Under the pieces are notes generated by a model. The model was not told the origin of the DNA and ran no database searches. It saw only the letters and a list, made by a program, of their open reading frames with translations. Positions 8,398-32,000 of a DNA stretch of 32,000 nucleotides are shown piece by piece (positions within the stretch are counted from its first letter, which is position 1; every line of letters starts with the position of its first letter). A program made the position numbers and the translations under genes. Source of the DNA: Megasphaera elsdenii DSM 20460. GTDB lineage: Bacteria > Bacillota > Negativicutes > Veillonellales > Megasphaeraceae. The stretch is taken from NCBI RefSeq assembly GCF_003010495.1, contig NZ_CP027570.1:2446943-2478942 (forward strand). Reading direction: 5' to 3'.

Positions 8398-8398
8398 G

Positions 8399-12573: not shown

Positions 12574-12602
12574 AAATAAGTTACACAACAAGGAGGAAGT
12601 AC

Positions 12603-14183: not shown

Positions 14184-14187
14184 TGTG

Positions 14188-14224: not shown

Positions 14225-14280
14225 GGTTCGTTTGGCGTAATTCGTTTGCCGAAAATCTGCACAAATACAGCACAGGCTGT

Positions 14281-14322: not shown

Positions 14323-14375
14323 TGACCTGCGGCTTGCTCCATTACGACAAACGCCCCACGGCAAACGGCAAACGT

Positions 14376-14412
14376 GAAAAAAAAGCTTCATGTATGACGT
14401 CAGAGGCTTTTT
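14376..14412 (-). terminator. Possible weak terminator after rsmA
   Basis: Minus strand reads AAAAAGC-(19 nt containing the TGACGTCA palindrome)-GCTTTTTTTT. The stem is A/T-rich, so support is modest. Confidence 0.3.
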
Positions 14413-14417
14413 CATGC

Positions 14418-15269: not shown

Positions 15270-15815
15270 TTATTTCACCTCGTGGATCTGACGGAGAGCG
15301 GCGTCCCATTCGTCACGGGTGACGCCGTAATGATTCAAGCGTTTCAAAAACTGTTTGGCATTGCCATAGCCGATACCCAGGATAGCGCCCACTTCGGCCC
15401 GGCGGTCGGCGGCATCCGGCGTCCCGTTGAGGCCGGCAGCGGCGATGTCCTGCATCGTAAAGGTTTCCTGCGGTTCATACGTGGCACAGCGGACTTTGGA
15501 CAAAGCCAGGCGGATGGCTTCCGGCGAAGCCTGTTCGACACCCAGGTCATTGTTGGCAATGGCATCTTTCCGGGGAATGAAGGCGTGCTTAGCCTTCGGG
15601 AAGCGGTCGGTCAGGAATTTACGGATCTGCTCTCCTGCCCGGTCGGGGTCGGTCAGGATGATGATGCCCCGCTTTTCATAGGCACAGCGTATCTGTTCCA
15701 GCGTATGGGGCTTCAAATTGAAGCCGTCTGTCGTAATCATATCGACGTCGATATGGCTGGCCCGGATGCGGGCGACATCAGACCGGCCTTCGACGACGAG
15801 GACTTCCTTAATCAT
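15270..15815 (-). CDS. rnmV: Ribonuclease M5 (Toprim domain, 5S rRNA maturation)
   Basis: Homology starts at MIKEVLVVEGRSDVARI (ATG 15815), with ILTDPDRAGEQIRKFL further in. The start overlaps the upstream gene's stop in ATGATTAA. The 23 residues upstream in the listed ORF overlap that gene and are not RNase M5-like. Confidence 0.9.
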   Translation of the reverse strand: MIKEVLVVEGRSDVARIRASHIDVDMITTDGFNLKPHTLEQIRCAYEKRGIIILTDPDRAGEQIRKFLTDRFPKAKHAFIPRKDAIANNDLGVEQASPEAIRLALSKVRCATYEPQETFTMQDIAAAGLNGTPDAADRRAEVGAILGIGYGNAKQFLKRLNHYGVTRDEWDAALRQIHEVK

Positions 15816-17064: not shown

Positions 17065-17104
17065 TGTTATGATTCCTTTCTGTATTTGCTTAGTTTATAA
17101 TGAA

Positions 17105-17306
17105 AGGCTCTCCTAATAGGGGAGCTGTCAGCTTTGCTGACTGAGGGGTTGCTTTTCTCTCATACCGTTTGCAGAATTCTGAAAAAACAACCCTTCCGCC
17201 TCTTCGAGGCACCTCCCCTATTAGGGGAGGCTTTCTGCTCTTCGCTTTCATTCATCAGGATGTGCACAGGATTCGCGCGGGCGCCCCACGTGGGCGCCCC
17301 TACGCT
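17105..17306. repeat. Cluster of REP-like elements (family B copy, its partial inverted partner, family A copy) filling the miaA-ynbB spacer
   Basis: 17105-17160 reads AGGCTCTCCTAATAGGGGAGCTGTCAGCTTTGCTGACTGAGGGGTTGCTTTTCTC and matches 20069-20122 inside mutL. 17208-17240 carries the inverted CCTCCCCTATTAGGGGAGGCT. 17265-17306 is a family A copy matching 14281-14322. No credible ORF is present; the 66-aa plus-strand ORF is repeat-derived. Confidence 0.8.
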
Positions 17307-18238
17307 CTCCAGTGAGCGTCTATATCACGGATGACGGCCCGGGCCAGGGCGGCTTCGTCCTCGTACTGGTCTTTTTCGTACCAATGGATGTAGGGCATGC
17401 GTTTGAACCACGTGAGCTGACGCTTGGCAAAACGCCGCGTCCGGGTCTTGATGCGGGCCACAGCGTCATCGAGGGGCATCTGTCCCTGGAGATACAGGGC
17501 CAGCTCCTGATAGCCGATGGCCTTCATGGCCTGACAGTCCGTCGGGATGCCCCGGTCCAACAAGTGCCGCACTTCATCGACCCAGCCGGCAGCGATCATA
17601 GCGTCGACGCGTTCTTCGATGCGGGCATATAAGACGTCCCGCGGCAGGCGCAGACCGATGACATAGGCGTCATAGACCAGACCGTGAGCCTTGCCGGCGC
17701 GGACGAAGGTCTTCCCTTCGCCCTGTTCGATAGCACTGACCAAGCGGGTCAGGCGATGCGTATTGGAAAGCAGCTCGTGCCAATCTGGCGGCTGCCAGTC
17801 CGTTTCCCGGACAATATAGTCTTTCAGCGCCCCTTCATCGAGGGAGGCAATGCGTGCCTGAGCCGCTTCCTTGTCAGCTTCGGTCATGCGGGCCGTCTGA
17901 AAATCGTAGCCTTCCAGGAGAGATTGGACATAGAGCCCTGTGCCGCCGACGACGATTGGGACTTTGCCCTTCCCGTTGACTTCGGCAATGGCGCTCCCTG
18001 CCATCTCACAAAAACGGGCTGCCGAATAGGGCTCGTCAGGTTCGGCAATATCGATGAAATAATGGTGATAGCGGGCTAATTCGTCCGCCGTCGGTTTCGC
18101 CGTACCGATATCCATATGGCGGTAAATCTGGTAGGCGTCGCCAGAAATGAGGTCGGTCCCGTACTGTTCGGCCAGGGCAAAACTGAGCGCCGTCTTGCCG
18201 ACCGCCGTCGGGCCGATGATGGCCATTACTTTTTCCAT
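17300..18238 (-). CDS. miaA: tRNA dimethylallyltransferase (i6A37)
   Basis: 312 aa. P-loop GPTAVGKTALS, then LISGDAYQIYRHMDIGTAKPT and RRFAKRQLTWFKR. The last codons and the TAG stop lie inside the family A REP copy. Confidence 0.95.
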   Translation of the reverse strand: MEKVMAIIGPTAVGKTALSFALAEQYGTDLISGDAYQIYRHMDIGTAKPTADELARYHHYFIDIAEPDEPYSAARFCEMAGSAIAEVNGKGKVPIVVGGTGLYVQSLLEGYDFQTARMTEADKEAAQARIASLDEGALKDYIVRETDWQPPDWHELLSNTHRLTRLVSAIEQGEGKTFVRAGKAHGLVYDAYVIGLRLPRDVLYARIEERVDAMIAAGWVDEVRHLLDRGIPTDCQAMKAIGYQELALYLQGQMPLDDAVARIKTRTRRFAKRQLTWFKRMPYIHWYEKDQYEDEAALARAVIRDIDAHWRA

Positions 18239-19035
18239 GAATCACACTCCAATACGGCATAGCCAATGCGGCTGTATTTACCGCCATATAAAACAGCTTC
18301 CGGGAAATCGCGGCAGAGTTGGCGGAAATCCCGCTCCTTGATGACGACCCGGCGCCGGGCTTTCTGCAGCGCCCGTTCAATCAGGTCCCGCGTCAGACCG
18401 CCGTGTTCCATAATGGCCCGGACGGGCTGGAACTGGCAGCTCGCCTCGACAGGCCGCTGGAACATGGGATCGAAATAGAGGACGTCGTACACGGGCCCTT
18501 CGTCGGATAATAGGTAATCGCGATAATCGCCACGGCGCAGAGAAATCCGTCGCAGTGCCGCCGTGACGTCGTCTTTCTTGTGGACAAAATGGGAAAAGCC
18601 CCACGATGTGACCGCTTCCAATAGGGGTGACACCTCCAGGGCATCGACGCGTGACCCAGTAGGCAAGCCAAAAGAAGCAACGGCCGCATCGGCGCCAAAG
18701 CCGCAGGTGCAGTCGAGGACGGTGATAGGCAGCTTGGAAGACCCCCTCCCCATCAGCGCTTCCAAGAGATGGTCGCGCTGGCCTTTCCGCAAGTTCTGGA
18801 TGCGTAGTTCGGCCATGTTGAGACTGAAGAAATGGCTGCCTTCCGGACGGTCGATTTGGGGTCCCCGCGACGAATAGACGAGGAAGTCCTCGCCGTATTC
18901 ATCCATCAAGTCCTGGATAGTCCGCTGGTGCCGCAACACATAGGTGAAGCCCTGGCTTTCGGCCCAGGCCTTCCCTTCACATTGTAATTTTTCTTTGGCC
19001 TTCAATGAAGGCACGACGTAAATCATATGAGTCAT
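18226..19035 (-). CDS. Class I SAM-dependent methyltransferase, RsmJ/DUF548-like (putative 16S rRNA m2G methyltransferase)
   Basis: 269 aa. VLDCTCGFGADAAVASFGLPTGSRVDALEVSPLLEAV resembles the RsmJ motif VxDATAGLGRDAFVLAS...ERNP, and LYFDPMF is present. The gene overlaps the mutL stop by 4 nt and the miaA start by 13 nt, suggesting translational coupling. Confidence 0.6.
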   Translation of the reverse strand: MTHMIYVVPSLKAKEKLQCEGKAWAESQGFTYVLRHQRTIQDLMDEYGEDFLVYSSRGPQIDRPEGSHFFSLNMAELRIQNLRKGQRDHLLEALMGRGSSKLPITVLDCTCGFGADAAVASFGLPTGSRVDALEVSPLLEAVTSWGFSHFVHKKDDVTAALRRISLRRGDYRDYLLSDEGPVYDVLYFDPMFQRPVEASCQFQPVRAIMEHGGLTRDLIERALQKARRRVVIKERDFRQLCRDFPEAVLYGGKYSRIGYAVLECDSWKK

Positions 19036-19688
19036 GTCCGTTTAAATAAATGGGCTAATTCTTTCGGTGTAAAGCGGATGATCGTCGGCCGGCCATGAGG
19101 GCAGACATAGGGTTTTTCCGTATGGAACAAATCATCCAAAAGTTGTTTCATCTGGCGGATATTGAGGCTGTCGCCGGCTTTGACAGCACCGTGGCAGGAC
19201 AGATAGGCCAGGGAACGATGACGGACCATGGCTTTATCCGGTTCCTTCTGGTCGTGTAAGAGCAGGCAGATATCTTTCAGGGAATCAGCAATATCGCTGG
19301 TCTGCAAATCGCAGGGTACTTCTTCCACGCGCAGCGTCGTCGGCCCGGCTTCAGAATACGTATAACCCAGGTCGTTGAAGACGTCCTGCCGTTCCAGCAG
19401 AAGCGTCATATCGTCGCTGTCGACATCGACGAACTCCGGCGTCAGCAGCTGCTGGCTCGGCATCCGTTCGACACGCTTACAAAAGGTATCATAGCGGATC
19501 CGTTCGTGGGCGGCATGTTGATCGACGATATATAAATCCTGGCCCTTCTTGGCAATGATGAAGCAGTCCGCCACTTCTCCCAAAGGAATGAAGACGTCGT
19601 CATCGCCATCAAAGACGATTTTCGGCGCCCCTGCCTCGGAAACGACAGATGTCGCCTCTGACGGGCCGCCTTGTCCATGCTGGGCCAA
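19032..19688 (-). pseudogene. mutL: mutL C-terminal fragment (dimerisation/endonuclease domain), out of frame with the N-terminal fragment
   Basis: PLGEVADCFIIAKKGQDLYIVDQHAAHERIRYD, SCHGAVKAGD and CPHGRPT are the endonuclease-type MutL C-terminal-domain motifs. The frame is open upstream to a TAA at 19782-19784, and the first start-like codon is TTG 19688. There is no SD and the frame differs from the N-terminal ORF. Confidence 0.85.
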
Positions 19689-19744
19689 AGCCTGGGAAAA
19701 GAGACTGGGTTGATCGGCTCCCCCACGTTCTTGGCGGGCACCCC

Positions 19745-20207
19745 ACGCAGGAGGCTCCCCTAATAGGCCCTTTGGGCCCGGTTAGGACCATCCGCAAGAG
19801 GCTCCCCTGATAGGCCCTTTTGGGCCCGGTCAGGACCATCCGCAGGAGGGTTCAGGCCGGCTGCCCAAACGGAGAGCCCGGCTGGAGCTGTCCGCGCAGC
19901 GGACTGAGAGGTTGTCTTTTCCTGCGGGCCGGCTGGAGCTGTCCGCTGCGGGCCGCCCTCTGGGACGGCCCCTACGGAGGTTGCTTTCTCCCACTGCGGG
20001 CCGCCCTTTGGGACAGCCCCTACGGTGGTTGTTTTGCCACCCTCTTGCGGGCGGGCGCCCCACACAAGAGGCTCCCCTGATAGGGGAGCTGTCCGCGTAG
20101 CGGACTGAGAGGTTGCTTTCTCCTGCGGGCCGCCCTTTGGGACGGCCCCTACGGAGGTTGCTTTTTCCTGCGGGCCGCCCTTTGGGACGGCCCCTACATC
20201 GACACCG
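19745..20207. repeat. Array of REP-like palindromic units (families B, C and D) embedded in the mutL interdomain linker
   Basis: Family C unit CTGCGGGCCGCCCTTTGGGACGGCCCCTACGGAGGTTGCTTT occurs at 20167-20197, 20122-20166, 19994-20036 and 19946-19990. Family B occurs at 20068-20122 and 19881-19922. Family D (GAGGCTCCCCTRATAGGCCCTTTGGGCCCGGTYAGGACCATCCGCA) occurs twice in tandem at 19751-19796 and 19798-19844. Confidence 0.85.
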
Positions 20208-21226
20208 ATGGTCTTGGCGATGGCTTCGGGCTTTTCCTGGGCCACCAAGGCCGTGACGATACTGTGGTAAATGGCCCGATAAACGGCTTGTTCATCGGAG
20301 AATTTGATTTCCGTCTTGGCAGGATGGACATTGACGTCGATCGTCGCCGGGTCGACATGGAGATGGAGCATGGCAAAGGGATAGCCCGATTTCGGCAGCA
20401 TGGCGTGATAAGCATTGTCGATGGCTTTGAACATCAAAGGATTATGGACGATGCGGTGATTGACGATGCACGTCTGCCAGTTGCGGTTGCTCTTTAAGAC
20501 CGACGGCTTGCCTACATAGCCTTCCAGGCTGATGCCGTCCTGGTCGGCAGAGATGGCAAAGACATCGCGGGCGACGTTGGCCCCGTAGATATTGGCAATC
20601 GTTTCCCGCAGGTCCCCTGTACCGCCGGTCTTCATCGTCGTCCGGCCATTATTGGTAAAGGTAAAGGCAATAGCCGGATTGGCTAGAGCCAGTTTAGTCA
20701 CCATTTCAGAGATTTTCGAACTTTCTGTCCGTTCGCTCTTGAGGAACTTGCGCCGCGCTGGCGTATTGTAAAAGAGGTCGCTTACTTCCATCGTCGTCCC
20801 GACCGGTGCACCGGCCTGGTCTTCTGCTGTAATTTCGCCCCCATCGAGGATGAGGTGCGTGGCAAAATCGTCGTCAGCCTGGCGCGTCGTAATCTGCATG
20901 TGCGATACGGCAGCAATACTGGGCACGGCTTCGCCGCGGAAGCCCAGAGACGTAATGGCAAAGATATCTTCGACAGAACTGATTTTGCTCGTGCCGTGAC
21001 GGATGATGCACTTATGGGCATCTTCCGGACTCATGCCGCAACCGTCGTCAGTGACCCGCATATAGGACTGGCCGCCATCGGCGATTTCCACTTCAATGGC
21101 ATGGGCACCGGCATCAATGGCATTTTCCACCAATTCCTTGATGCACGACGCCGGCCGTTCGACGACTTCGCCGGCAGCGATTTTATTGCGCGTCGCTTCA
21201 TCTAAGACATGAATGATTGAACTCAC
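19760..21226 (-). pseudogene. mutL: mutL N-terminal fragment (GHKL ATPase + transducer domain + repeat-filled linker) ending at TAG 19760-19762
   Basis: IHVLDEATRNKIAAGEVVERPASCIKELVENAIDAGA...DDGCGM...SLGFRGEA are the canonical MutL N-terminal-domain motifs. After about residue 335 the sequence becomes VGAVPKGGPQEKATS repeats. The stop lies inside a family D repeat, and the start overlaps the mutS stop by 4 nt. Confidence 0.9.
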
Positions 21227-23820
21227 TGGATCCCACTTCCTTCTTTGGCATCTTTTTGCAGATTATATAAGAAAGAAATCGCTTCAATCGGCGTCATACT
21301 GCTGACATCGACACTGAGCAGCTTATCGATGACGGGACTGGAAAAGAGATTGTCCCCCATGGGTGACGGCGCAGGGTTCACAGGCGCCTTGGCCGGGACG
21401 GGAGCGCCGCCGTTCTTTTCCAAATCTTCCAAAATGACGTCGGCCCGCTTGAGCAGGCTTTCCGGCAAGCCGGCCAGGCGCGCCACGTGCAGGCCGTAGC
21501 TGCGATCGGCGCCGCCGGGAATGATGCGCCGCAGGAACTTGATGTTCTTGCCCCGTTCCTTGACGGCGACCGTATAATTCTTGATTTTCGGCGAATCGTC
21601 GGCCATGGCGATGAGTTCGTGATAATGCGTCGCAAACAGCGTCAAGGCGTGGATATGCTTCAGGCAGTATTCGATGACGGCCCTGGCGATGGACATGCCG
21701 TCAAAGGTGCTCGTCCCGCGGCCGATTTCATCGAGGATGAGCAGGCTGCGGCTAGTCGCATGTTTCAGGATGTACGACACTTCCTTCATTTCCATCATGA
21801 ACGTACTCTGACCGGTGAGGATATCATCGCTGGCGCCGATGCGGGTAAAGATGCGGTCTACCGGGCAAATAGACCCTTCCTTGGCCGGAATGAAGGAGCC
21901 AACTTGAGCCATGAGGACCAACACGGCGACTTGGCGCATATACGTCGACTTACCGGCCATATTCGGTCCGGTAATGACCAGGATTTCATGATCTTCATGG
22001 TTCAAAGTGACGTCATTGGGAACGAACAATTCGTCTTTCAAATACTTTTCAATAATGGGATGACGGCCGTCCTTGATGGAAATCGTCGCCTTCGTGTTGA
22101 GGCTGGGACGGACGTAGCGGTTGTCATAAGCCGCGCAGGCCAGGCTGTACAAGCAGTCGATGCGGGCAATGGCCCGGGCCGTTGCCTGCATGGCCGGGAT
22201 ATGTCCCTGGATCTGACGGCGGATGTCGCCGAAAAGCTTATATTCCAAAGCCAGCATCCGTTCCTGGCTGGTCAGGACTTTGACTTCAAACTCCTTCAAT
22301 TCCGGCGTGATATAGCGTTCGGCATTGACCAAGGTCTGCTTGCGTACGTAATAATCGGGAATGGGCTTGGTATTGGCATGGGAAATCTCGAAGTAATAGC
22401 CAAAGACTTTGGTATAGCCGATTTTCATCTTAATGCCGGTCTTTTCCTTTTCCTTCTCTTCCAGTTCCTGCAAAAAGGCATGGCTGTTGGCCGCAATGGA
22501 ACGGATTTCATCGAGTTCCGGCGAAAAACCATCGCGGATGACGCCGCCGTTGCGGATGACCAATCCCGGTTCGTCCTTGATGCCCCGGCAGAGCAGGTCA
22601 TAGACGTCGTCATGGGTCTGCAAGCGGTCATTGAGGTTGTGCAGGAGGTCGGCGCTGGCCCCGGCCAAGACGTTTTTGAGCTGCGGAATGACGGCCAGCG
22701 ATTCCCGCAGGGCCACTAAGTCTTTCGGGCTTACCGTTCCCGTTTCGATACGGGTCAGGATGCGTTCAAAGTCGTAGATCCGGTTCAGCACGTCAGCTGT
22801 ATCTTGGCGCATGATTTCGTGGAGGACGAAGTCTTCGACGGCATCTTGGCGGCGCGTAATATCGGCAATGCGGATAAGCGGCGCTTCCAACCACTTGCGC
22901 AGGAGCCGCCCGCCCATAGCCGTCTGGGTCTTGTCCAAGACATCGAGGAGCGTCCCCCGGCGGCCGCCGTCGCGGACGTTCTGCGTGATTTCCAGATGGC
23001 GCAGGCTGGCCGCATCGACGACCAGGCGCCGGTCATTGTCGATGTGTTCCAGGGAATTGATGTGAGAAATATCGGACTGCATGACGTCGCTGACATAGTC
23101 CAGGAGCATGCCGATGCAGTCGCCAGCCGCTGTGGCAGCCGCAAAATCTTCAGGCGGGAAATAGGACCGGGCCTGTTCGCTATAATCGACGTTGTCATCA
23201 GCAGGAAATTCCGTGACCGTACATTGCGCCAAATGGCTTCGCAAGTATTCGCGGACAGCGTCCATATCCTTCCCCATATGGGCGTAAATGAGTTCACTCG
23301 GTTCGTAGACGGCAAGGATATCGAACAAGGAGTCTTCCATGACCGACGCAGCGCAGTCAGCCCACAGACATTCGCCGGTCGTGACGTCCATAAGGGCCAT
23401 AGAAAGGATGCCTTCTTTTTCATTCAGGCAGCCGATGTAATTGTTCTGCTTCGACGCTACGGCATTTTCCAGGGTAATCGTCCCTGGCGTAATGACCTTG
23501 ATGATCTTGCGCTTGACCAAGCCTTTCGCCAGCTTCGGGTCCTCCATCTGTTCGCAGATAGCGACCTTATAGCCTTTGTGGACCAGCCGTTCAATATAGG
23601 TATCGGCCGAATGAAAGGGCACGCCGCACATAGGGACTTTTTCCTTATTGCCGCCAGCCCGGCCCGTCAAGGTCAGGTCCAATTCGCGCGACGCCGTCAG
23701 GGCATCGTCAAAAAACATTTCATAGAAGTCGCCGAGGCGGAAAAAGAGGATTTTATCCTGGCACTGCTCTTTGACTTCCATGTACTGCTGCATCATAGGC
23801 GTTAATTTTTTTCCTGCCAA
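21223..23820 (-). CDS. mutS: DNA mismatch repair protein MutS
   Basis: LTPMMQQYMEVKEQ...FFRLGDFYEMFFDDA, Walker A GPNMAGKSTYMRQ, and DEIGRGTSTFDG. The likely start is TTG 23820, giving (M)AGKKLTPMMQQY, with SD AAGGAAGG upstream and no overlap with miaB. The maximal ORF reaches ATG 23865. The gene ends in TGA. Confidence 0.95.
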   Translation of the reverse strand: MAGKKLTPMMQQYMEVKEQCQDKILFFRLGDFYEMFFDDALTASRELDLTLTGRAGGNKEKVPMCGVPFHSADTYIERLVHKGYKVAICEQMEDPKLAKGLVKRKIIKVITPGTITLENAVASKQNNYIGCLNEKEGILSMALMDVTTGECLWADCAASVMEDSLFDILAVYEPSELIYAHMGKDMDAVREYLRSHLAQCTVTEFPADDNVDYSEQARSYFPPEDFAAATAAGDCIGMLLDYVSDVMQSDISHINSLEHIDNDRRLVVDAASLRHLEITQNVRDGGRRGTLLDVLDKTQTAMGGRLLRKWLEAPLIRIADITRRQDAVEDFVLHEIMRQDTADVLNRIYDFERILTRIETGTVSPKDLVALRESLAVIPQLKNVLAGASADLLHNLNDRLQTHDDVYDLLCRGIKDEPGLVIRNGGVIRDGFSPELDEIRSIAANSHAFLQELEEKEKEKTGIKMKIGYTKVFGYYFEISHANTKPIPDYYVRKQTLVNAERYITPELKEFEVKVLTSQERMLALEYKLFGDIRRQIQGHIPAMQATARAIARIDCLYSLACAAYDNRYVRPSLNTKATISIKDGRHPIIEKYLKDELFVPNDVTLNHEDHEILVITGPNMAGKSTYMRQVAVLVLMAQVGSFIPAKEGSICPVDRIFTRIGASDDILTGQSTFMMEMKEVSYILKHATSRSLLILDEIGRGTSTFDGMSIARAVIEYCLKHIHALTLFATHYHELIAMADDSPKIKNYTVAVKERGKNIKFLRRIIPGGADRSYGLHVARLAGLPESLLKRADVILEDLEKNGGAPVPAKAPVNPAPSPMGDNLFSSPVIDKLLSVDVSSMTPIEAISFLYNLQKDAKEGSGIQ

Positions 23821-23834
23821 AGTCTCACCTTCCT

Positions 23835-25163
23835 TTAGTGCACTAAGTGACCTTTGAGGACCCATGTCTGGCCCTTGTCGACCTGGACCGGCACGGTATC
23901 ACCGATAGCGACGGAGCCGTCATTTTCCCAAATGATCATCTTGTTGCCCGTCGTCCGGCCGAACCAGTGATTGGCGTCATTCTTAGTCGGCCCTTCGACG
24001 ATGACATCATAGACATGGTCTTCCATTTCTTTATTCTTGGCTCAACTATAGACGTTCTGTACTTCCATCAGGCGCTGAAGGCGACGGCTCTTTTCTTCCT
24101 GCGGAATCTGGTCTTCCATCTTCGCTGCCGGTGTCCCTGTCCGCGGCGAATAAATGAACGTATAAGCCATATCGTACTGGACGCGTTTGAGCAGGTTCAG
24201 CGTATCTTCAAACATGGCTTCCGTTTCGCCAGGAAAGCCGACGATGATGTCCGTCGTCAGGACCAAGTCGGGCATGCGCTTGCGGGCATAGTCGACGAGT
24301 TCCAAGTAATGTTCCACCGTATAACCGCGGTTCATCTTCTTCAAGAGCTCATTGGAACCGCACTGGATAGGCAGATGCATGTGGTTGACGACCTTCTGGC
24401 TGTCGGCAATGGCGTCGATCATGGCAAAGGTCATATCCTTGGGATGGCTGGTCATGTAGCGCACCCGTTCGATACCGTCGATATCATCGACAGCGGCGAC
24501 GAGCTTGGAGAAATCCGTGCCGTCTTTGAGATCCAGACCATACGAATTGACGTTCTGACCGAGCAAGGTGATTTCCTTGTAGCCTTCAGCGGCAACCTTC
24601 TTGATTTCTTCCACAATGGCGTCGATAGGGCGGCTCACTTCGCGGCCCCGGACATAAGGCACGATGCAGTACGTGCAGAACTTGTTGCAGCCGTTCATGA
24701 TGGGAATCCAGGCAAAGAACTTCTGGAAACGCTTGACCGGCATATCGTGGAAGGCCGGCAGGCTCATGTCGGCAGCCATATAATGGTCGGCCTTGCTGCG
24801 CCGTTCCTGGATGAGCTCGATGAGCTTGTGGATGTTGTGCGTCCCAATGACCAAGTCGATATGAGGCGCCCGCTTGAAGAGCTTATCCTGCCATTCCTGG
24901 GCCATGCAGCCCGTGACGGCAATGATCAAATCGGGGTTCTGCGTCTTCAAGTGCTTGAGTTCGCCAATCTTTCCCAGCGTCTTGTCTTCCGCCGTTTCGC
25001 GGACACAACACGTATTGATGAGGATGACATCGGCTGTATCCAAATCCTCCGTATGATGATAGCCCAGCTCTTCTAACTGCCCGGCATAATGCTCACTGTC
25101 AGACATATTCGCCTGACAGCCGTAGGAAATAATATGATAAAATCGATTGCTCTGAAAATCCAT
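23835..25163 (-). pseudogene. miaB: tRNA-2-methylthio-N6-dimethylallyladenosine synthase MiaB, interrupted by one in-frame TGA (24042-24044) between the radical-SAM core and the TRAM domain
   Basis: ORF 24042..25163 carries the UPF0004 domain (YGCQANMSDSE) and the radical-SAM motif CNKFCTYCIVP. ORF 23835..24026 is a TRAM domain (VYDVIVEGPTKNDANHWFGRTTGNKMIIW). The two are in the same frame, separated only by TGA plus five sense codons. Confidence 0.9.
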
Positions 25164-25211
25164 GTAATCTCTCCGTTTTTCACAAAAATCATAATTTAGG
25201 GTTTACAGTAT

Positions 25212-25241
25212 ATAATACCATATATGGGCCGCCTATGTGAA
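25212..25241 (-). promoter_or_regulatory. Putative promoter of miaB-mutS-mutL
   Basis: On the minus strand: -35 TTCACA (25241-25236), 18-nt spacer ending in TGg, and -10 TATTAT (25217-25212), about 50 nt upstream of ATG 25163. Confidence 0.4.
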
Positions 25242-25700
25242 GGGCTTTTTAGGGCCTAGCGGCCCCGTTCATCGTAGGTCGTTCATCGTTCATCGAATTT
25301 TGGGGACTGACGGCCCGCCGGTCGCCGGTCGCCTCGGACTCAGATGCCGCTTCGCGGCAATAACCTCCGACTAACAACATCGCCTCGAGTGACCTTCGGC
25401 TCGTGGAAAAAATCGTGGCTCGTGGTTCGTGGTTTGTAAAACCTCACCATTATACTCGAATGGGCTGTGGTCGAATCTCACAGCGGGCCGCCAGCCACGG
25501 CTGTCCGTTTTGGCAACCGTCTTGCACCTCCCGTTGGTCGGCACCTGTCGGGCCAAAAAGGCTTCTAGGCCGGCCCCTACGCACAAGGCCGTTAGCCATT
25601 GTATTTGGGTTATATTCGGTAAACGACCTTCCCACTCATCGCCTGTATGCGATACGTAGGGGCCGACCTGTCCAAGGCGGCCCGCCATCTGCGGCCTGCG
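25226..25700. repeat. Non-coding, GC-rich spacer of about 475 bp made of degenerate REP-like units and short tandem repeats
   Basis: Family-C-like units with GGCCCCTAC/GTAGGGGCC occur in both orientations: 25551-25583 (GGGCC...GGCCGGCCCCTACGC) and 25646-25676 (reverse complement GCGGGCCGCCTTGGACAGGTCGGCCCCTACG). Short tandem repeats are GTTCATCG x3 (25267-25296), CCGGTCGC x2 (25318-25333) and TCGTGG x4 (25401-25432). All ORFs here are Arg/Pro/Gly-rich and unconvincing. Confidence 0.65.
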
Positions 25701-25701
25701 T

Positions 25702-26525
25702 TCACTGGTCCTCGTGTCTCCGTTTGATGCGGTAGACGGTGGATTGGCCGATACCGAGTGCTTTGGCGATTTGGGCACCGCTTTTGCCTTCACGGCTCAT
25801 TTTTTCAATCATTTCATAGGTGCGCCCCCTGAGATGGCCTTCTTCGTCAAGTTTTCCCCGTTCCTCAGCAACAACATCCCGAGGCATGACACGCAAGACG
25901 TCTTTTACCTGAATCGTCTGATTCTTGACGACCAGCACCAGTCGTTCGATGATATGGGCCAACTGCCGTACATTACCGGGCCAGGGCTGATTCTTCAAAA
26001 GCTCCCAGACATTGGTATCAAAGGTCCCGATAAGATCCGTAACCCCTTGGGACGCGGCCCGCCGGATAAGGTCCCGCAATTCCCGTTCATCATATTCCGG
26101 CGCCAAGCGATAAAAAGAGACATCCATGACCTGCAACGCATCTTCCAAGTCATCATAGTAATCGCGGAGGGCAAAGGGGATGATAGCCCCTAGTTTCCCG
26201 CCTTTAGGGGTAAAATAAATACACCTCAACAGATCCAGGACACTAGGCTGAATCACATAGACCTGTACCTGAGGATAGGAAGCCGCCAGCTTCGTCGCCA
26301 TCGGTTCCCAGGCAAAAAAGCGACCACTTCCGAACGGACGGCTTCTGCAATCTGAAGCTTGGCCCCTTTACGCGCCCCGTTAATGAGGATAACCTGTGAG
26401 GGTTCAATCCATCGGGATACCCGTGTCATCTGCTGGACCATGTCATAGGCAGCCCCATTCAGCGTAATAACAAAAACTTTTAAGTTTCCATTTACCAATC
26501 CCGCGTAAAATCTCTCGTCATTCAT
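25702..26525 (-). pseudogene. PrpR_N-domain regulator derived from a sigma-54 activator (no AAA+ core; lid + HTH retained), frameshifted at a T6 run
   Basis: ORF 26253..26525 gives KVFVITL...VILINGARKGAKLQIAEAVRSEVVAF. ORF 25702..26301 gives VQVYVIQPSVLDLL...GVTDLIG, fused directly to WPGNVRQLAHIIERL and the HTH SGAQIAKALGIGQSTVYRIKRR. The frames join at ttttttg (plus-strand A6 at 26314-26319). Confidence 0.7.
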
Positions 26526-26644
26526 ACCTGCTCCTTTATATTTTTAAAAACGGTCTCCAGCAATATTGAACGTAGTATTAATTCAATATTTGATTTATAT
26601 TTTGTATTGAATACGTACATTATACAATAACTGAGAAGAAAACA

Positions 26645-26693
26645 CAAAAAAGCCAGCACCGGATGATTTGACTCATCGAGTGCTAGCTTTTTC
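26645..26693 (-). terminator. Rho-independent terminator after the RHH gene
   Basis: Minus strand reads AAAAAGCTAGCACTCGATGA-GTCAAA-TCATCCGGTGCTGGCTTTTTTGTGTT, a long imperfect stem followed by T6. Confidence 0.65.
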
Positions 26694-26698
26694 ATGAT

Positions 26699-26884
26699 TT
26701 AATGTCTCATATCATTCTGACCTGGAGCCTTTACTTCAAAGGGAATCCGTTGTTCCCGGACAGCGGTCTTGATGAACAAGATGATCGCTGTAGACATGCT
26801 CAGTCCAACGGAATCACAGAAGGCTTCAAAGTCTTCTTTCAACTCCTTATTGATACGAAAAGATACTCCAATTTGTGAAGCCAT
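26699..26884 (-). CDS. RelB/DinJ-family ribbon-helix-helix protein (antitoxin-like, no toxin partner visible)
   Basis: 61 aa. VSFRINKELKEDFEAFCDSVGLSMSTAIILFIKTAVREQRIPFEV matches the RelB/DinJ pattern. SD AGGGGGA lies 7 nt before the ATG, which is 14 nt downstream of the adhesin stop. Confidence 0.8.
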   Translation of the reverse strand: MASQIGVSFRINKELKEDFEAFCDSVGLSMSTAIILFIKTAVREQRIPFEVKAPGQNDMRH

Positions 26885-26898
26885 AATAGTCCCCCTTT

Positions 26899-29800
26899 TT
26901 ATTTAGCATCGGAAATGACGCGGACGCGTTCGATGGTCGGTTTGCCATCGCGGTCTTTCTGAATCGTGTCGATGCGGATGTACTGGAGTTCTGGCGAAAA
27001 TTCTTTGACCAGCTTGCTCAGTTCCGGATCCGTGCTGCCGACACCGCTTTCGACGATGCGGTAGACGATGGCAGCAAATTCATAACGCGTCATCATGCGG
27101 TCGCCTTTAAATTCGCCATCCGGGTAGCCTTCAAGGATACCTTTCTTGGCCAGCGTCGTGACGTACTGGTAAGCCCAATGGTTTTCGGCCACATCCGGGA
27201 AGAGCACGCTCTTGGCCGGGTCGACAGCCATGCCATGCATACTTTGCAGTTTGGCAATGAGGGCGTCCTGTTCGGCCATGTGCTGGCGCATGGCTTTCAT
27301 TTCCTTAGCCATGGCCACGCGAGATGTGGAAACATGGTTACCCTGGCCAAGCTTAATGCTGACACCGGCATTGACCATGTTTTCCCCGCCGCCGAAGGAA
27401 CCGCCGACGCTGAACATGGTGTCTTCATTGGGACGGTAGTAAGCACCGACAGCGGCCGCATTGGCACCACGGTAATTGCCGTAACCAGCGGCGAAGTCCC
27501 ACTTATCATCCGGGTCGAAGTCCAGCGGATGGAGAGCTGCCAGTGCAGCGGCACCGGCACCGACGCGATTGATGCGGTTGCCCAGTTTATTGACCGAACC
27601 GCTGAGGCCATTGATAGCCTGGTCACGCTGCCAGAGCTGGCTGCCGTTGACGGCATCCGTCGAATCCTGGCTGACCTTGCCCGGTGCAACGCCTTCAATC
27701 TTGTTGCCGCCCATATTGACAGCGCCCTGCTGGATGGTAATGTCCTGATGACTGCTATCGCCGGTTTTGATGGTAAGACCACCGTTATCCATAGTCGTGT
27801 TGCCTGTCGTAATGGTTTTAGCTTCGATACTGCTGATACCTTTAAGGTCTTTGGCCAATTTGACTTGCAATTTGGCATTATCACCATCTTGCGAAGCAAC
27901 GACACCGATATTATTGCCATCGGCATATTCCGTAGCACCACCGTAAATCTGGACATTCTTGTTCAGTTTCACCGCAGCATTGCCGGAATCGCCGCTGTAC
28001 TTCATGCCATCGTCCATGGTAGCCACTTCATGAGTTACATGGTTGTGGTCTTCGTATACGACGCGGTCCATGCCGTCTTTGCCACCATGGCCGTCGGTAC
28101 CATCGACACCGACCTGGCCATTCTTGACATGGATATCAGCCGATGCGTTCTGACCATCTTTGCCGGCAGAACCCGTCAGGCCAATGTGGCCTTCCGTACC
28201 ATTCTTACCGTCGATACCCTTGATGGTGACACCATCTTTGCCATCTTTACCTTTGATGGAAATGCCATCCTTGCCATCAATGCCGATGCCGGACTTGCCA
28301 TCAGCCCCATTGATACCCATATGGCCATTCTGTCCATCTTTACCGTCTTTGCCAGCACCACCGATATTCAGGTTATCGCTGAGCTTCAGATCATAAACCT
28401 TCTGCCCATCGTCGCCTGTCTTCTGAGCAATCTGGAGGTTGCCTTCCGAATACGTATTTTCTGTTGTTGGTGCAACTGTACCGCCATTGACGGTGACTTC
28501 CGTATGATGCTTGTCGACCTTATCGATCTTCGTGTTCACATCAGCGATCTGCTTGTTGACATTCGACTCGACCTGATGGAGCTGATCCTCTGTAGCAGCA
28601 CGGCCGCTGACATAGGAACCATCATTCTTCCAGGTCTTATTATCCAGATTAGTGACAAACTTACCGCCATCGGCTTTCTTATCCGTAGCCTTGCCATCCT
28701 TATCATAAATGGTCAGGCTGCTGTCGCCATTTTTGATGTTGCCAATCTTGACGCCATTGTTGCCGCCAGCGACAATCTGGCCCTTCGAGCCATCGACAGT
28801 GACCTTGTTGTCGCCTGTACCGGCCGTAATCGTGCCATCGGTGCCGCTGATAGCAACTGTCTTGTCACCCTTAGCGGTATCGCCAAAAGTGACATCCTTG
28901 GCCAAATCGACGGTGTATTTTTTACCGCCAGTCGAATTCATACCTTCTGTGACAGTGATATTCTTCGAACCAGCTTCTACCGTCGCATGCTGACCAGCCA
29001 GAGTCTTGACGTCATTCAACTGGGATACATTTACAGCATCCGTATCATTGGTACCAGCAACCACATTGGTAATTCTGTTGCCGCCGTTGTCGAGGCCCCT
29101 ATCCGTCAACGAGACTGTCGTCGTCTTATCTCCCTCTTTCTTGGTAATGGCCATACCGCCATCGTTGATGGTCGTATTGCCCATCGTGACAGAGCCGTTG
29201 TTGCCCAGGTTGAGGTCCTTGTTCAGTTTGACCAGCAGCTGGCCGTTATCTCCGTCCTGGCTCGATACGACGCCGATGTTGCCGTCTGTAAGGTCGCTTT
29301 CATTCTTGGCATTGCCTTTGACATTGACCTGTTTGTCCAGTTTGACTGCCGAGGGGGTGCCAAAGTCACCACCGAATTTCAGGCCATCATCGAGGGTGGC
29401 CACTTCATGTTTGGTCTGGCTCTTGTCTTCGTAGATGATGCGCGTTATGCCATCTGTCCCATCGACGCCTGCTTTACCTTTGTCGCCCTTGATGGTGAGG
29501 CCGTTGGCCCCATCCTTGCCATTCAGGCCGATGCTGCCGTCCCTGCCGTTGATGACTACGGCCGAGCCGTCTTTGCCATTGACGCCGATCGTACCGTCAA
29601 CACCATTCTTGCCCGGTTCGCCTTTTTCACCGACCGTGACGCTGTTGCCCTTGATGTCCTTGTCCATCTTGATGGTCAGGCTGCCATCGGTATTCCCGAT
29701 GACCTTGAGGTTTTCTCCGGAATAATTCGCATCCGCTTTCGTGCCTTCCCCTTGGATGGTCAGTTTCTGGCCCAGGTTGCGGTGAACGGTGACTTCCTTG

Positions 29801-31806
29801 TTGTTACCCTGGAAATCCAGGCCTTTCATTTTCAGGTCAGTTTCCGTAGTCTGAACAATGTTCTTCACGTCCCCGATATTCGCGCCGTTGGTCAGCGTGT
29901 TATAGGTCGGTTTGCCATCAGCCGTGCCATCGGAGCCGCTGCCCATGTTCTTCACCTGGTTGCCGCCCAGCATTACATTGCCCTCTGTGATGGCAATATT
30001 CTTATTTGTATCATCATTCTTGATGGTCAGGCCGCTGTTGTCGATGGTGGTATTTCCCGTCGTGACACTCGTCAGGTCCGTCAGCTTCTTTGCCATCTGG
30101 ACTTTCAGTTTGCCATCGGCCGTACTCTGGACAGCGATGTTCTTATCCGTCAGGTCGCCCTGGGCTCCGCCGACGATGTCGAGCTGTTCATTCAGTTTCT
30201 TCGTGATGACCTTATCATCATCGCCCTTGAACTTCAGGCCGTCATCAAGGGTAGCCACTTCATGTTTGGTCTGGCTCTTGTCTTCGTAGATGATGCGCGT
30301 TATGCCATCTGTCCCATCGACGCCTGCTTTACCTTTGTCGCCCTTGATGGTGAGGCCGTTGGCCCCATCCTTGCCATTCAGGCCGATGCTGCCGTCCCTG
30401 CCGTTGATGACTACGGCCGAGCCGTCTTTGCCATTGACACCGATCGTACCGTCAACACCATTCTTGCCCGGTTCGCCTTTTTCACCGACCGTGACGCTGT
30501 TGCCCTTGATGTCCTTGTCCATCTTGATGGTCAGGCTGCCATCGGTATTCCCGATGACCTTGAGGTTTTCTCCGGAATAATTCGCATCCGCTTTCGTGCC
30601 TTCCCCTTGGATGGTCAGTTTCTGGCCCAGGTTGCGGTGAACGGTGACTTCCTTGTTGTTACCCTGGAAATCCAGGCCTTTCATTTTCAGGTCAGTTTCC
30701 GTAGTCTGAACAATGTTCTTCACGTCCCCGATATTCGCGCCGTTGGTCAGCGTGTTATAGGTCGGTTTGCCATCAGCCGTGCCATCGGAGCCGCTGCCCA
30801 TGTTCTTCACCTGGTTGCCGCCCAGCATTACATTGCCCTCTGTGATGGCAATATTCTTATTTGTATCATCATTCTTGATGGTCAGGCCGCTGTTGTCGAT
30901 GGTGGTATTTCCCGTCGTGACACTCGTCAGGTCCGTCAGCTTCTTTGCCATCTGGACTTTCAGTTTGCCATCGGCCGTACTCTGGACAGCGATGTTCTTA
31001 TCCGTCAGGTCGCCCTGGGCTCCGCCGACGATGTCGAGCTGTTCATTCAGTTTCTTCGTGATGACCTTATCATCATCGCCCTTGAACTTCAGGCCGTCAT
31101 CAAGGGTAGCCACTTCATGTTTGGTCTGGCTCTTGTCTTCGTAGATGATGCGCGTTATGCCATCTGTCCCATCGACGCCTGCTTTACCTTTGTCGCCCTT
31201 GATGGTGAGGCCGTTGGCCCCATCCTTGCCATTCAGGCCGATGCTGCCGTCCCTGCCGTTGATGACTACGGCCGAGCCGTCTTTGCCATTGACACCGATC
31301 GTACCGTCAACACCATTCTTGCCCGGTTCGCCTTTTTCACCGACCGTGACGCTGTTGCCCTTGATGTCCTTGTCCATCTTGATGGTCAGGCTGCCATCGG
31401 TATTCCCGATGACCTTGAGGTTTTCTCCGGAATAATTCGCATCCGCTTTCGTGCCTTCCCCTTGGATGGTCAGTTTCTGGCCCAGGTTGCGGTGAACGGT
31501 GACTTCCTTGTTGTTACCCTGGAAATCCAGGCCTTTCATTTTCAGGTCAGTTTCCGTAGTCTGAACAATGTTCTTCACGTCCCCGATATTCGCGCCGTTG
31601 GTCAGCGTGTTATAGGTCGGTTTGCCATCAGCCGTGCCATCGGAGCCGCTGCCCATGTTCTTCACCTGGTTGCCGCCCAGCATTACATTGCCCTCTGTGA
31701 TGGCAATATTCTTATTTGTATCATCATTCTTGATGGTCAGGCCGCTGTTGTCGATGGTGGTATTTCCCGTCGTGACACTCGTCAGGTCCGTCAGCTTCTT
31801 TGCCAT
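26899..31806 (-). CDS. Trimeric autotransporter adhesin (YadA-like stalk/head repeats, YadA membrane anchor, coiled coil, C-terminal SLH domain). This is the reading frame downstream of a 20-bp duplication; the true gene continues upstream.
   Basis: 1635 aa. Repeated modules TTGNTTIDNSGLTIK and G-x-x-G runs (GEKGEPGKNGVDGTIGVNGKDG). Neck DAVNGSQLW, then anchor AGAAALAALHPLDFDPDDKWDFAAGYGNYRGANAAAVGAYYRPNEDTMFSVGGSF (about 27340-27657). SLH domain FPDVAENHWAYQYVTTLAKKGILEGYPDGEFKGDRMMTRYEFAAIVYR (about 27050-27200). The 'start' at 31806 is an internal Met of the repeat unit. Confidence 0.93.
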   Translation of the reverse strand: MAKKLTDLTSVTTGNTTIDNSGLTIKNDDTNKNIAITEGNVMLGGNQVKNMGSGSDGTADGKPTYNTLTNGANIGDVKNIVQTTETDLKMKGLDFQGNNKEVTVHRNLGQKLTIQGEGTKADANYSGENLKVIGNTDGSLTIKMDKDIKGNSVTVGEKGEPGKNGVDGTIGVNGKDGSAVVINGRDGSIGLNGKDGANGLTIKGDKGKAGVDGTDGITRIIYEDKSQTKHEVATLDDGLKFKGDDDKVITKKLNEQLDIVGGAQGDLTDKNIAVQSTADGKLKVQMAKKLTDLTSVTTGNTTIDNSGLTIKNDDTNKNIAITEGNVMLGGNQVKNMGSGSDGTADGKPTYNTLTNGANIGDVKNIVQTTETDLKMKGLDFQGNNKEVTVHRNLGQKLTIQGEGTKADANYSGENLKVIGNTDGSLTIKMDKDIKGNSVTVGEKGEPGKNGVDGTIGVNGKDGSAVVINGRDGSIGLNGKDGANGLTIKGDKGKAGVDGTDGITRIIYEDKSQTKHEVATLDDGLKFKGDDDKVITKKLNEQLDIVGGAQGDLTDKNIAVQSTADGKLKVQMAKKLTDLTSVTTGNTTIDNSGLTIKNDDTNKNIAITEGNVMLGGNQVKNMGSGSDGTADGKPTYNTLTNGANIGDVKNIVQTTETDLKMKGLDFQGNNKEVTVHRNLGQKLTIQGEGTKADANYSGENLKVIGNTDGSLTIKMDKDIKGNSVTVGEKGEPGKNGVDGTIGVNGKDGSAVVINGRDGSIGLNGKDGANGLTIKGDKGKAGVDGTDGITRIIYEDKSQTKHEVATLDDGLKFGGDFGTPSAVKLDKQVNVKGNAKNESDLTDGNIGVVSSQDGDNGQLLVKLNKDLNLGNNGSVTMGNTTINDGGMAITKKEGDKTTTVSLTDRGLDNGGNRITNVVAGTNDTDAVNVSQLNDVKTLAGQHATVEAGSKNITVTEGMNSTGGKKYTVDLAKDVTFGDTAKGDKTVAISGTDGTITAGTGDNKVTVDGSKGQIVAGGNNGVKIGNIKNGDSSLTIYDKDGKATDKKADGGKFVTNLDNKTWKNDGSYVSGRAATEDQLHQVESNVNKQIADVNTKIDKVDKHHTEVTVNGGTVAPTTENTYSEGNLQIAQKTGDDGQKVYDLKLSDNLNIGGAGKDGKDGQNGHMGINGADGKSGIGIDGKDGISIKGKDGKDGVTIKGIDGKNGTEGHIGLTGSAGKDGQNASADIHVKNGQVGVDGTDGHGGKDGMDRVVYEDHNHVTHEVATMDDGMKYSGDSGNAAVKLNKNVQIYGGATEYADGNNIGVVASQDGDNAKLQVKLAKDLKGISSIEAKTITTGNTTMDNGGLTIKTGDSSHQDITIQQGAVNMGGNKIEGVAPGKVSQDSTDAVNGSQLWQRDQAINGLSGSVNKLGNRINRVGAGAAALAALHPLDFDPDDKWDFAAGYGNYRGANAAAVGAYYRPNEDTMFSVGGSFGGGENMVNAGVSIKLGQGNHVSTSRVAMAKEMKAMRQHMAEQDALIAKLQSMHGMAVDPAKSVLFPDVAENHWAYQYVTTLAKKGILEGYPDGEFKGDRMMTRYEFAAIVYRIVESGVGSTDPELSKLVKEFSPELQYIRIDTIQKDRDGKPTIERVRVISDAK

Positions 31807-31840
31807 CTGGACTTTCAGTTTGCCATCTGGACTTTCAGTT
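31801..31840. repeat. 20-bp direct tandem duplication (tgccatctggactttcagtt x2) that frameshifts the adhesin gene
   Basis: Other copies read ...cttctt-tgccatctggactttcagtt-tgccatcggcc (for example 30945-30975). Here the 20-mer occurs twice (31801-31820 and 31821-31840). The unit is bounded by the 7-nt microhomology TGCCATC. Confidence 0.95.
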
Positions 31841-32000
31841 TGCCATCGGCCGTACTCTGGACAGCGATGTTCTTATCCGTCAGGTCGCCCTGGGCTCCGC
31901 CGACGATGTCGAGCTGTTCATTCAGTTTCTTCGTGATGACCTTATCATCATCGCCCTTGAACTTCAGGCCGTCATCAAGGGTAGCCACTTCATGTTTGGT
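31815..32000 (-). pseudogene. Upstream part of the same adhesin gene (extends beyond the window), terminated by TGA 31815-31817, which is created by the duplication
   Basis: In the repeat-unit frame, translation reads ...LKFKGDDDKVITKKLNEQLDIVGGAQGDLTDKNIAVQSTADGKLKVQMAN-stop. It is identical to the other repeat copies up to the duplication. Confidence 0.85.

Follow-up and report, generated by a model that had tools for sequence, protein, structure and literature searches.

A 20-nt tandem duplication that probably inactivates a giant trimeric autotransporter adhesin gene in the Megasphaera elsdenii type strain

The question

A giant surface adhesin gene of Megasphaera elsdenii is broken by a 20-nt tandem duplication lying inside an array of long, near-perfect repeats. 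Is the duplication one position of a reversible switch, an error of assembly, or an ordinary mutation? We address this question in a 32,000-nucleotide stretch of DNA (hereafter the window). Our analysis favors an ordinary mutation: the locus probably carries a young, strain-specific null allele produced by replication slippage, with no programmed on/off switch.

A duplication within a repeat array

The gene is encoded on the minus strand. Its repeats, and the duplicated and unduplicated forms of the site (2x and 1x), lie as follows.

29374..32000, minus strand: 855-bp (285-aa) tandem array, in-window part, about 3 copies
30089..30117, minus strand: 1x site of the last repeat copy, unduplicated
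30944..30972, minus strand: 1x site of the sixth repeat copy, unduplicated
31799..31847, minus strand: duplicated tract, 49 nt, 2.45 perfect copies of a 20-nt unit

A search of the window for the unit, TGCCATCTGGACTTTCAGTT, returns exact matches at 30091, 30946, 31801, and 31821; 100 shuffles return 0. The 20-mer is thus present once in each of the two other in-window repeat copies and as a tandem pair at 31801-31840, exactly as a preliminary description of this DNA had reported. That description placed the pair in the third repeat copy, which is correct inside the window, but the complete gene, available in the near-identical complete genome CP198969.1, has seven site-bearing 855-bp repeats, and the duplication is in the fifth. 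It also took the heptamer TGCCATC for the bounding repeat; the actual direct repeat is 9 nt long, TTTGCCATC. The undamaged site spans 29 nt and consists of this 9-mer twice with 11 nt between, so that each 855-bp repeat encodes GATGGCAAA-CTGAAAGTCCA-GATGGCAAA (Asp-Gly-Lys ... Met-Ala-Lys). The 20-nt unit is present in 2.45 copies here; the count is 1.45 in other strains and in the remaining six repeats of this gene. Tandem Repeats Finder reports the tract at 31799-31847 with a period of 20, 2.5 copies, and 100% matches, and it is the sole perfect out-of-frame tandem repeat found by that program within the window. The extra 20 nt have no unique position inside the tract.

The array is highly homogeneous. 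Repeat copies 2-6 are 100% identical in DNA over 855 bp, and start-to-start spacing of the long repeats runs 855, 855, and then 875 across the duplication. No significant hairpin exists at the duplication site (z-scores -0.7 to +0.5), which rules out hairpin-promoted slippage. On the practical side, the PCR across 31700-31900 suggested in the preliminary description could not serve as a test: its primers match every one of the seven repeat copies, and a fixed 6:1 mix of products would result.

Comparison with deposited genomes places the window, as judged from sequence identity, in the lineage of the M. elsdenii type strain (ATCC 25940 = DSM 20460). Specifically, positions 1-17134 are 100% identical to HE576794.1, the 2011 reference, and positions 15703-32000 match CP198969.1, duplication included, with a single base different at w19773. 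The latter difference falls in a homopolymer in mutL; it is probably an error in the window assembly, and CP198969.1 corrects it. Outside the array, one base differs over about 29.4 kb between the window and three other type-strain assemblies. Both assemblies that resolve the array (the window and CP198969.1) carry the 2x form at copy 5, and the lesion is thus stable at the consensus level in two deposited assemblies. HE576794.1, with about 6 kb of the gene collapsed at the array and a 1-nt deletion at the junction, and GCA_965137425.1, with an N-gap at the array, were dropped as independent witnesses for those reasons. Logan short-read contigs of the type-strain lineage end in the last repeat, short of placing the duplication. 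A third NCBI record, of type-strain size, provides an 864-aa protein (P0123) that starts at an ATC inside a frame that is open in the window; its source record may differ in the array.

One adhesin gene, two reading frames

The consequences of the duplication for the gene are laid out below.

31815..31817, minus strand: premature TGA stop (TCA on the plus strand), made by the duplication; ends the N-terminal 2,612-aa ORF
31804..31806, minus strand: internal ATG, the Met of ...KVQMAKK..., first possible start of the 1,635-aa frame
31815..32000, minus strand: 3' end of the N-terminal ORF (2,612 aa in full), which extends past the window end
26899..31806, minus strand: C-terminal ORF, 1,635 aa, with three 285-aa repeats, collagen-like stalk, YadA_stalk, YadA_anchor, and SLH
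27352..27516, minus strand: YadA-like membrane anchor (beta-barrel), PF03895, E 5.3e-12, residues 1431-1485 of the C-terminal ORF
27073..27201, minus strand: SLH periplasmic domain, after the anchor, PF00395, E 8.5e-12, residues 1536-1578 of the C-terminal ORF

The 20-nt insertion shifts the frame by +2, and a TGA follows two codons on. Read on the minus strand, the upstream frame ends in ...DGKLKVQMAN*, with the TGA at 31817-31815, 8 nt from the restart ATG. The frameshift, the stop, and a downstream frame that can restart only at the internal Met at 31806, lacking a signal peptide, had all been described beforehand and are borne out. No promoter-like site was found upstream of the restart ATG (31806-31804), which speaks against an internal promoter for the C-terminal ORF, and reading the bases before that ATG revealed no Shine-Dalgarno-like sequence.

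The N-terminal ORF lies in full at 2154-9992 of sequence L001. When one 20-mer is deleted from L001, the ORFs of 2,612 and 1,635 aa become a single open frame of 4,244 aa. By its domains, the repaired gene encodes a trimeric autotransporter adhesin (type Vc) of the Negativicutes type, in keeping with the giant adhesin proposed earlier. The domain order is ESPR signal, YadA head, collagen-like stalk, YadA anchor, and C-terminal SLH, with the seven 855-bp repeats situated in the stalk. The ESPR (PF13018, E 9e-16) occupies residues 1-49 of the 2,612-aa ORF, in the part of L001 outside the window. This upstream ORF further matches YadA_head (E 1.6e-56), YadA_stalk (E 5.7e-20), and Collagen, and the 1,635-aa ORF matches YadA_stalk (E 1.1e-19) and Collagen (E 6.7e-19). 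In type Vc secretion, export of the passenger needs the signal peptide and the barrel in one chain. With the frame broken at 31815-31817, signal peptide, passenger, and anchor are no longer joined in one polypeptide. An SLH-type domain is reported in 99.8% of Negativicutes trimeric autotransporters (bioRxiv 10.64898/2026.01.22.700529). By ancestry, the locus is a member of this family, and its present form is a frameshifted allele.

Alleles in other strains

An intact counterpart exists. A 2,531-aa orthologue is uninterrupted on the 588-kb metagenome contig L085, and when the repaired protein is stripped of its six identical repeat copies, the remaining 2,534 aa are 99.57% identical to it end to end. 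The type-strain gene is therefore collinear with an intact orthologue once a single defined lesion is repaired. The site is 1x on the L085 contig and on two further contigs, and several wild rumen and gut strains have an intact orthologue. Other strains have unrelated inactivating lesions at this locus (deletions and truncations), and the GTDB species representative of M. elsdenii (MSK.21.52) has no more than an 834-aa remnant, which lies in another context. At the homologous site, other alleles have GGCAAA...GGCCAAA or GCCAAA...GGCCAA; the perfect 9-mer pair is found only in this repeat type.

Searches for the sequence itself returned little. A GTDB species-representative scan found the 20-mer in 0 of 77 loci, and two scans of JGI metagenomes, one with a gapped pattern for 1x or 2x and one with the plain 29-mer, gave 0 matches. 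The repaired 4,244-aa protein has no exact match among about 15 billion proteins. Thus, neither a 1x version of the type-strain allele nor a revertant was found in the JGI metagenomes or the protein collection, an absence from databases that is weak evidence. A homologue search with the unique 775-aa C-terminal part returned proteins of at most 1,354 aa, mostly contig-end fragments. Finally, a nearby defect in miaB is a TTA to TGA substitution, which rules out a mutational signature common to the two genes.

Slippage, switching, or error

The following sequence of events accounts for these observations. A 9-nt direct repeat with a 20-nt period would have arisen by chance in each 855-bp repeat. 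In the fifth copy, slippage between the two 9-mers would have added one 20-nt unit, and the resulting +2 shift and TGA would have split the adhesin gene in two. The N-terminal, 2,612-aa passenger fragment possesses a signal peptide and lacks the beta-barrel anchor, and the C-terminal, 1,635-aa fragment possesses the anchor and SLH domain and lacks a signal peptide. Given how type Vc secretion works, we infer that neither fragment could be displayed on the cell surface, and the allele would for this reason be null. The 12.7-kb gene contains no other stop or frameshift, so either the duplication is recent or the gene is still selected in some conditions. As the sole defect in the gene, amid otherwise identical repeat copies, the lesion appears to be young. 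Like any tandem duplication, it could in principle revert: slippage could excise the 20-mer again, or the 855-bp copies on either side, being identical, could restore the frame through unequal recombination or gene conversion.

That reversibility raises the possibility of true phase variation, in which the 20-bp unit or the 855-bp repeats switch often and the sequenced cultures happen to be mostly OFF. Surface adhesins are commonly subject to phase variation. Here, the tandem duplication has 29 nt of self-homology, permitting precise excision, the identical flanking 855-bp copies offer a second path to frame restoration, and the duplication is the only lesion in the gene. Moreover, a frame-destroying in-ORF tandem duplication is what underlies reversible capsule phase variation at Streptococcus pneumoniae cap3A (Waite 2001, via PMC11163986), and the present lesion is of that kind. 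We nonetheless consider phase variation unlikely, contrary to the ON/OFF proposal of the preliminary description. The two assemblies that resolve the array show 2x at one and the same copy, and the exact repaired protein does not occur among the roughly 15 billion searched, so both states are not seen in the clone or its close relatives at the level of assembly consensus. The tract, at 2.45 copies (1.45 undamaged), falls far short of a hypermutable tract of many short units. It is also not conserved across alleles, the 9-nt microhomology being degraded in the others. That other strains have lost the gene through deletions and truncations of unrelated kinds is easier to reconcile with dispensability than with a switch. 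The site has neither a significant hairpin nor a promoter-like sequence ahead of the restart ATG, and no further perfect out-of-frame tandem repeat accompanies it in the window. Finally, for BadA, the best-studied parallel, regained expression has never been described (PMC8859334).

A more elaborate version would be a working switch that resets in two ways, by slippage of the 20-mer or by RecA-type recombination or gene conversion among the identical 855-bp repeats around it. We judge it quite improbable. Were it true, M. elsdenii cultures would always include a minority of cells in which the adhesin is repaired, frequently at a reduced repeat number; the perfect homogenisation of the array would keep such frameshifts reversible; and the mode of adhesin phase variation would be new for diderm Firmicutes.

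Could the duplication instead be an artefact, with an assembler or polisher having added 20 bases in a near-perfect 6-kb repeat and the real gene intact? The array is plainly hard to assemble, given its collapse in HE576794.1 and the N-gap in GCA_965137425.1, and the window assembly contains at least one probable homopolymer error (mutL, w19773). For ATCC 25940, the published assembly was made by Canu from PacBio RS II data, with no polishing step reported (PMC6346161). In addition, the window assembly and CP198969.1 may share data, and polishing of those data might have yielded the latter. Against these points, a perfect 20-nt unit with 9-nt microhomology borders is the mark that biological slippage leaves, and most errors in a long-read consensus are indels of 1 nt. 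The artefact, which the preliminary description kept as its alternative, is unlikely because two deposited assemblies, one base apart, carry the same duplication in the same copy, and the second of them corrects the homopolymer difference of the first. The window is otherwise accurate, with its one differing base over about 29.4 kb outside the array, and the reported coverage exceeds 200x (PMC6346161).

The notion that a whole product is nevertheless made, by programmed ribosomal frameshifting or transcriptional slippage, or that the two halves cooperate, draws on the adjacency of the ORFs, the 8 nt between stop and restart, and the intactness of every domain, but is hardly credible: restoring the frame would take a -1 (or +2) shift, the sequence GGC AAA CTG AAA GTC CAG ATG GCA AAC TGA contains no X XXY YYZ slippery heptamer, on which ground programmed frameshifting is rejected, no stimulatory structure exists at the duplication, the duplication is absent from intact orthologues and from the other six copies, and the C-terminal half lacks the signal peptide and the N-terminal half the barrel that passenger export requires in one chain.

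Implications for the reference strain

ATCC 25940 / DSM 20460 is the M. elsdenii reference strain and is used as a benchmark and an engineering chassis. If the slippage knockout is real, the type strain is without its largest surface adhesin, and adhesion, aggregation, and biofilm data obtained with it may understate these behaviors in wild strains of the rumen and gut. In annotations, the 2,612-aa product and the 1,635-aa product belong together as a single frameshifted gene; about 6 kb of this gene is collapsed in the 2011 reference. Otherwise, this is a routine case of slippage mutagenesis in a repetitive adhesin gene.

Comparison with known systems

Slipped-strand mispairing is known to alter expression of trimeric autotransporters, with Neisseria NadA (a TAAA tract) and Moraxella UspA1 (poly-G) as examples. 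Those tracts comprise many units of 1-4 nt, are conserved across strains, and often lie in promoters. The tract described here has a 20-nt unit, normally in 1.45 copies, lies inside coding sequence, and is not conserved.

At cap3A, the type 3 capsule gene of S. pneumoniae, a spontaneous in-ORF tandem duplication is the OFF state and its precise loss the ON state, and both directions occur at measurable frequency with a colony phenotype (PMC11163986); here, only the OFF state is seen. The two cases also differ in gene kind and organism. Waite and colleagues reportedly found, in 2001, that the frequency of cap3A reversion scaled with duplication length.

Veillonella parvula SKV38, of the same class (Negativicutes), has split trimeric autotransporters. 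Specifically, FNLLGLLA_00036-37 and 00040-41 are split relative to Vpar_0041 and Vpar_0048, and, as here, the split is strain specific and leaves an N-terminal piece and an anchor piece without a signal peptide; the consulted portions of the two sources describe no lesion behind these splits and report no 855-bp perfect array at them (PMC7549365; bioRxiv 10.64898/2026.01.22.700529). A partial adhesin without a signal peptide was judged unable to reach the periplasm (bioRxiv 10.64898/2026.01.22.700529).

BadA of Bartonella henselae differs in several respects. Bartonella is a proteobacterium, and BadA has no SLH periplasmic domain; its lesions are deletions, of 262 bp and of 1 bp, and not a short tandem duplication; and its loss of expression was demonstrated experimentally, whereas here the loss is deduced. 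There are also likenesses. BadA, too, is a trimeric autotransporter of giant size, and its long neck/stalk array is repetitive and varies in length among strains (PMC8859334). Phase variation was proposed for badA, reversion was never observed, and the lesion was visible only with long reads (PMC8859334). The gene is frameshifted in B. henselae ATCC 49882T var-1 and in Berlin-I, and, as in M. elsdenii, a laboratory variant of the type strain carries an in-repeat frameshift and a premature stop, in that case with expression lost (PMC8859334).

A 20-bp duplication divides the adhesin gene

Within one 855-bp repeat of the adhesin stalk, a 20-nt unit is present twice in tandem. Specifically, exact matches to TGCCATCTGGACTTTCAGTT lie at 30091, 30946, 31801, and 31821 of the window (shuffled sequence gave none in 100 shuffles), so the 20-mer is doubled at the 31801 site and single in the two other in-window copies, as the preliminary description had claimed. 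Its stop and restart coordinates are likewise correct, and they appear below with the other features of the array.

29374-32000 (5959-12438 of L001, the adhesin locus on CP198969.1), minus strand: array of 855-bp repeats
31799-31847: tandem tract, period 20, 2.5 copies, 100% identity (Tandem Repeats Finder)
31817-31815, minus strand: TGA ending the upstream adhesin frame, which reads ...STADGKLKVQMAN
31806-31804, minus strand: ATG of the downstream frame, 1,635 aa, ending at 26899
28215-28278: in-frame, imperfect tandem repeat of 33 bp (1.9 copies, 80% matches) within the stalk's collagen-like G-X-Y stretch
29912..30289, 30767..31144, and 31622..31936, plus strand: examples of recurring antisense ORFs

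Long-repeat spacing across the site is 855, 855, and then 875 bases. An undamaged copy reads TTTGCCATC-TGGACTTTCAG-TTTGCCATC at this site, a direct repeat of 9 nt, rather than the 7 nt originally proposed, with a 20-nt period; the unduplicated state comprises 1.45 copies of the unit. The 9-mer pair arises from the particular codons used for D-G-K and M-A-K in this adhesin repeat type. Seven repeat copies of L001 contain the 20-mer, and copy 5 alone has it doubled. Array copies 2-6 are identical across the full 855 bp and copy 1 differs by one base; such near-perfect identity implies very recent expansion or ongoing homogenization. The plus-strand ORFs of 94-142 aa that recur every 855 bp (29006-31936) run antisense to the adhesin coding sequence and seem to be mere products of its repetition instead of genes.

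The 1,635-aa ORF encodes collagen-like repeats, YadA_stalk, YadA_anchor, and then SLH. When a periplasmic SLH or coiled-coil domain comes after the anchor, the architecture is the Negativicutes form of trimeric autotransporter adhesins (PMC7549365; bioRxiv 10.64898/2026.01.22.700529). The closest named homologs of the C-terminal part are M. elsdenii proteins, and the gene is filed as a trimeric autotransporter by ancestry. Exact-protein look-up places an identical ORF on CP198969.1, a 2,479,069-bp chromosome, where it follows a 2,612-aa ORF that encodes YadA head repeats and stalk behind an ESPR signal peptide. Deletion of one 20-mer from L001 fuses both ORFs into a single open frame of 4,244 aa. 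The duplication is the sole lesion in the 12.7-kb gene. Without the six identical repeat copies, the repaired protein is 99.57% identical end to end to an uninterrupted 2,531-aa ortholog (L085, on another contig).

Consequence for adhesin display

The signal peptide stays with the N-terminal fragment, which lacks the barrel; the C-terminal fragment possesses the barrel and SLH domain and lacks the signal peptide. Upstream of the C-terminal fragment's ATG, no promoter-like site was found, and no Shine-Dalgarno-like sequence was seen on reading the bases. In type Vc secretion, passenger export requires a barrel within the same chain. A Veillonella partial adhesin with no signal peptide was judged incapable of reaching the periplasm (bioRxiv 10.64898/2026.01.22.700529). 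From this requirement and this precedent, we infer that surface display is lost. Programmed frameshifting was rejected: there is no slippery heptamer near GCA AAC TGA and no stimulatory structure.

The duplication in type-strain assemblies

Window positions 1-17134 are 100% identical to HE576794.1, the 2011 DSM 20460 type-strain genome, and 15703-32000 match CP198969.1 save for one missing T at 19773, which is also the only difference from HE576794.1 and GCA_965137425.1 outside the array. The window sequence is distinct from CP198969.1 itself, and all four sequences belong to one strain lineage. With one difference in about 29.4 kb of non-array sequence relative to the other type-strain assemblies, the window is otherwise accurate.

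Replication slippage yields a perfect 20-nt unit bounded by 9-nt microhomology, and long-read consensus errors look different. The lesion has the slippage form, the window contains no second perfect tandem repeat that is out of frame, and the duplication occupies the same repeat copy in both array-resolving records (the window source and CP198969.1, the only two). Together with the accuracy outside the array, these points make it improbable that assembly or consensus created the extra 20 bases, the main caveat being that the two duplication-bearing assemblies may be non-independent. HE576794.1, in which the array is collapsed (about 6 kb missing) to one junction that bears a 1-nt deletion, and GCA_965137425.1, with a run of N within the array, are therefore uninformative. 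ATCC 25940 was also assembled from PacBio RS II reads with Canu (PMC6346161). Finally, an 864-aa NCBI protein on a 2,478,942-bp contig starts at the ATC codon at 29491-29493 (minus strand), inside the open 1,635-aa frame of the window; thus, this third assembly of type-strain size was annotated differently or has a different array.

Switch or plain mutation

The preliminary description offered a reversible ON/OFF lesion or an assembly artifact. The duplication, stop, and restart stand, and the interpretation as a whole is partly supported. The lesion is not classed as a contingency locus, because three defining features were sought and not found: a many-copy short-unit tract, both states among the close relatives whose assemblies resolve the array, and a tract conserved across alleles. 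A true switch with recombination-based reset is improbable. In favor of reversibility, the gene is otherwise undamaged and its repaired, repeat-reduced product closely matches the intact ortholog; slippage can excise any tandem duplication; and the identical 855-bp copies on either side of the lesion offer a second route, by which gene conversion or unequal recombination could remove it and restore the frame, perhaps at the cost of some repeats. Against a selected switch, the gene is OFF at the same copy in both array-resolving assemblies, exact look-up did not find the repaired protein in the protein collection, and the site is absent altogether in two metagenome scans. Moreover, the 9-mer pair is degraded in other alleles (Leu in place of Met, and GGCCAAA), and the normal state is merely 1.45 unit copies. 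The lesion is best classed as a slippage frameshift, giving a young pseudogene or null allele. Events of this type are well known, and this is a new example; in practice it matters only for annotation and for those who work with the M. elsdenii type strain.

The locus in other strains and neighboring genes

States of the adhesin locus in other strains
Intact adhesin genes: 1,980 to 3,112 aa
N-terminally replaced form: 1,131 aa
Upstream sigma-54 activator fused to the adhesin C-terminus: 1,426-aa ORF (L086, one metagenome contig)
Remnants: 834 aa; some (L089) only reflect gaps in the assembly

An array of varying length and frequent inactivation by unrelated lesions are in keeping with a surface protein that is dispensable and evolves fast. 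A full-length sigma-54-dependent activator lies upstream of the adhesin (L001 326-1828), and on the downstream side the adhesin and relB are followed by a fragment of its paralog. The fragment varies from 135 to 384 aa among strains; this variation and the L086 fusion suggest recombination between the two activator copies.

26699-26884, minus strand: RelB-family antitoxin-like gene, 61 aa, immediately after the adhesin; product identical across thousands of Megasphaera contigs (4,811 blocks in the index)
About 26520-26695: conserved 57-aa ORF after relB, with no recorded Pfam domain
25702-26301, minus strand: activator 3' fragment, 199 aa, AAA lid and HTH only
23835..25163, minus strand: miaB-like radical-SAM gene
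19760..21226 and 19032..19688, minus strand: mutL ORFs

Two further genes are interrupted in the window sequence. In mutL, the window has TTT at 19771-19773 versus TTTT in HE576794.1, CP198969.1, and GCA_965137425.1; MutL consequently ends after 488 aa, not 731, and loses its C-terminal domain. The variant falls within the MutL linker, in a tandem repeat of 48 bp that keeps the frame (19746-19849), and reflects either a consensus error at the homopolymer or a genuine defect in mismatch repair in that stock. In the miaB-like gene, a TTA-to-TGA nonsense change at codon 374 (24042-24044) splits a 442-aa methylthiotransferase into 373 and 63 aa; it is common to all type-strain assemblies, and the other strains examined carry an unbroken gene.

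Comparison with known systems

The closest parallel is BadA of Bartonella henselae, likewise a giant repetitive trimeric autotransporter, whose type-strain laboratory variant is frameshifted inside the repeats, a lesion that long reads alone resolved (PMC8859334). Phase variation was proposed for BadA, and regain of expression was never seen. If the M. elsdenii lesion were reversible, the pneumococcal cap3A duplications would be closest in mechanism (PMC11163986). By architecture, the closest relatives are the split adhesins of Veillonella parvula SKV38 (PMC7549365).
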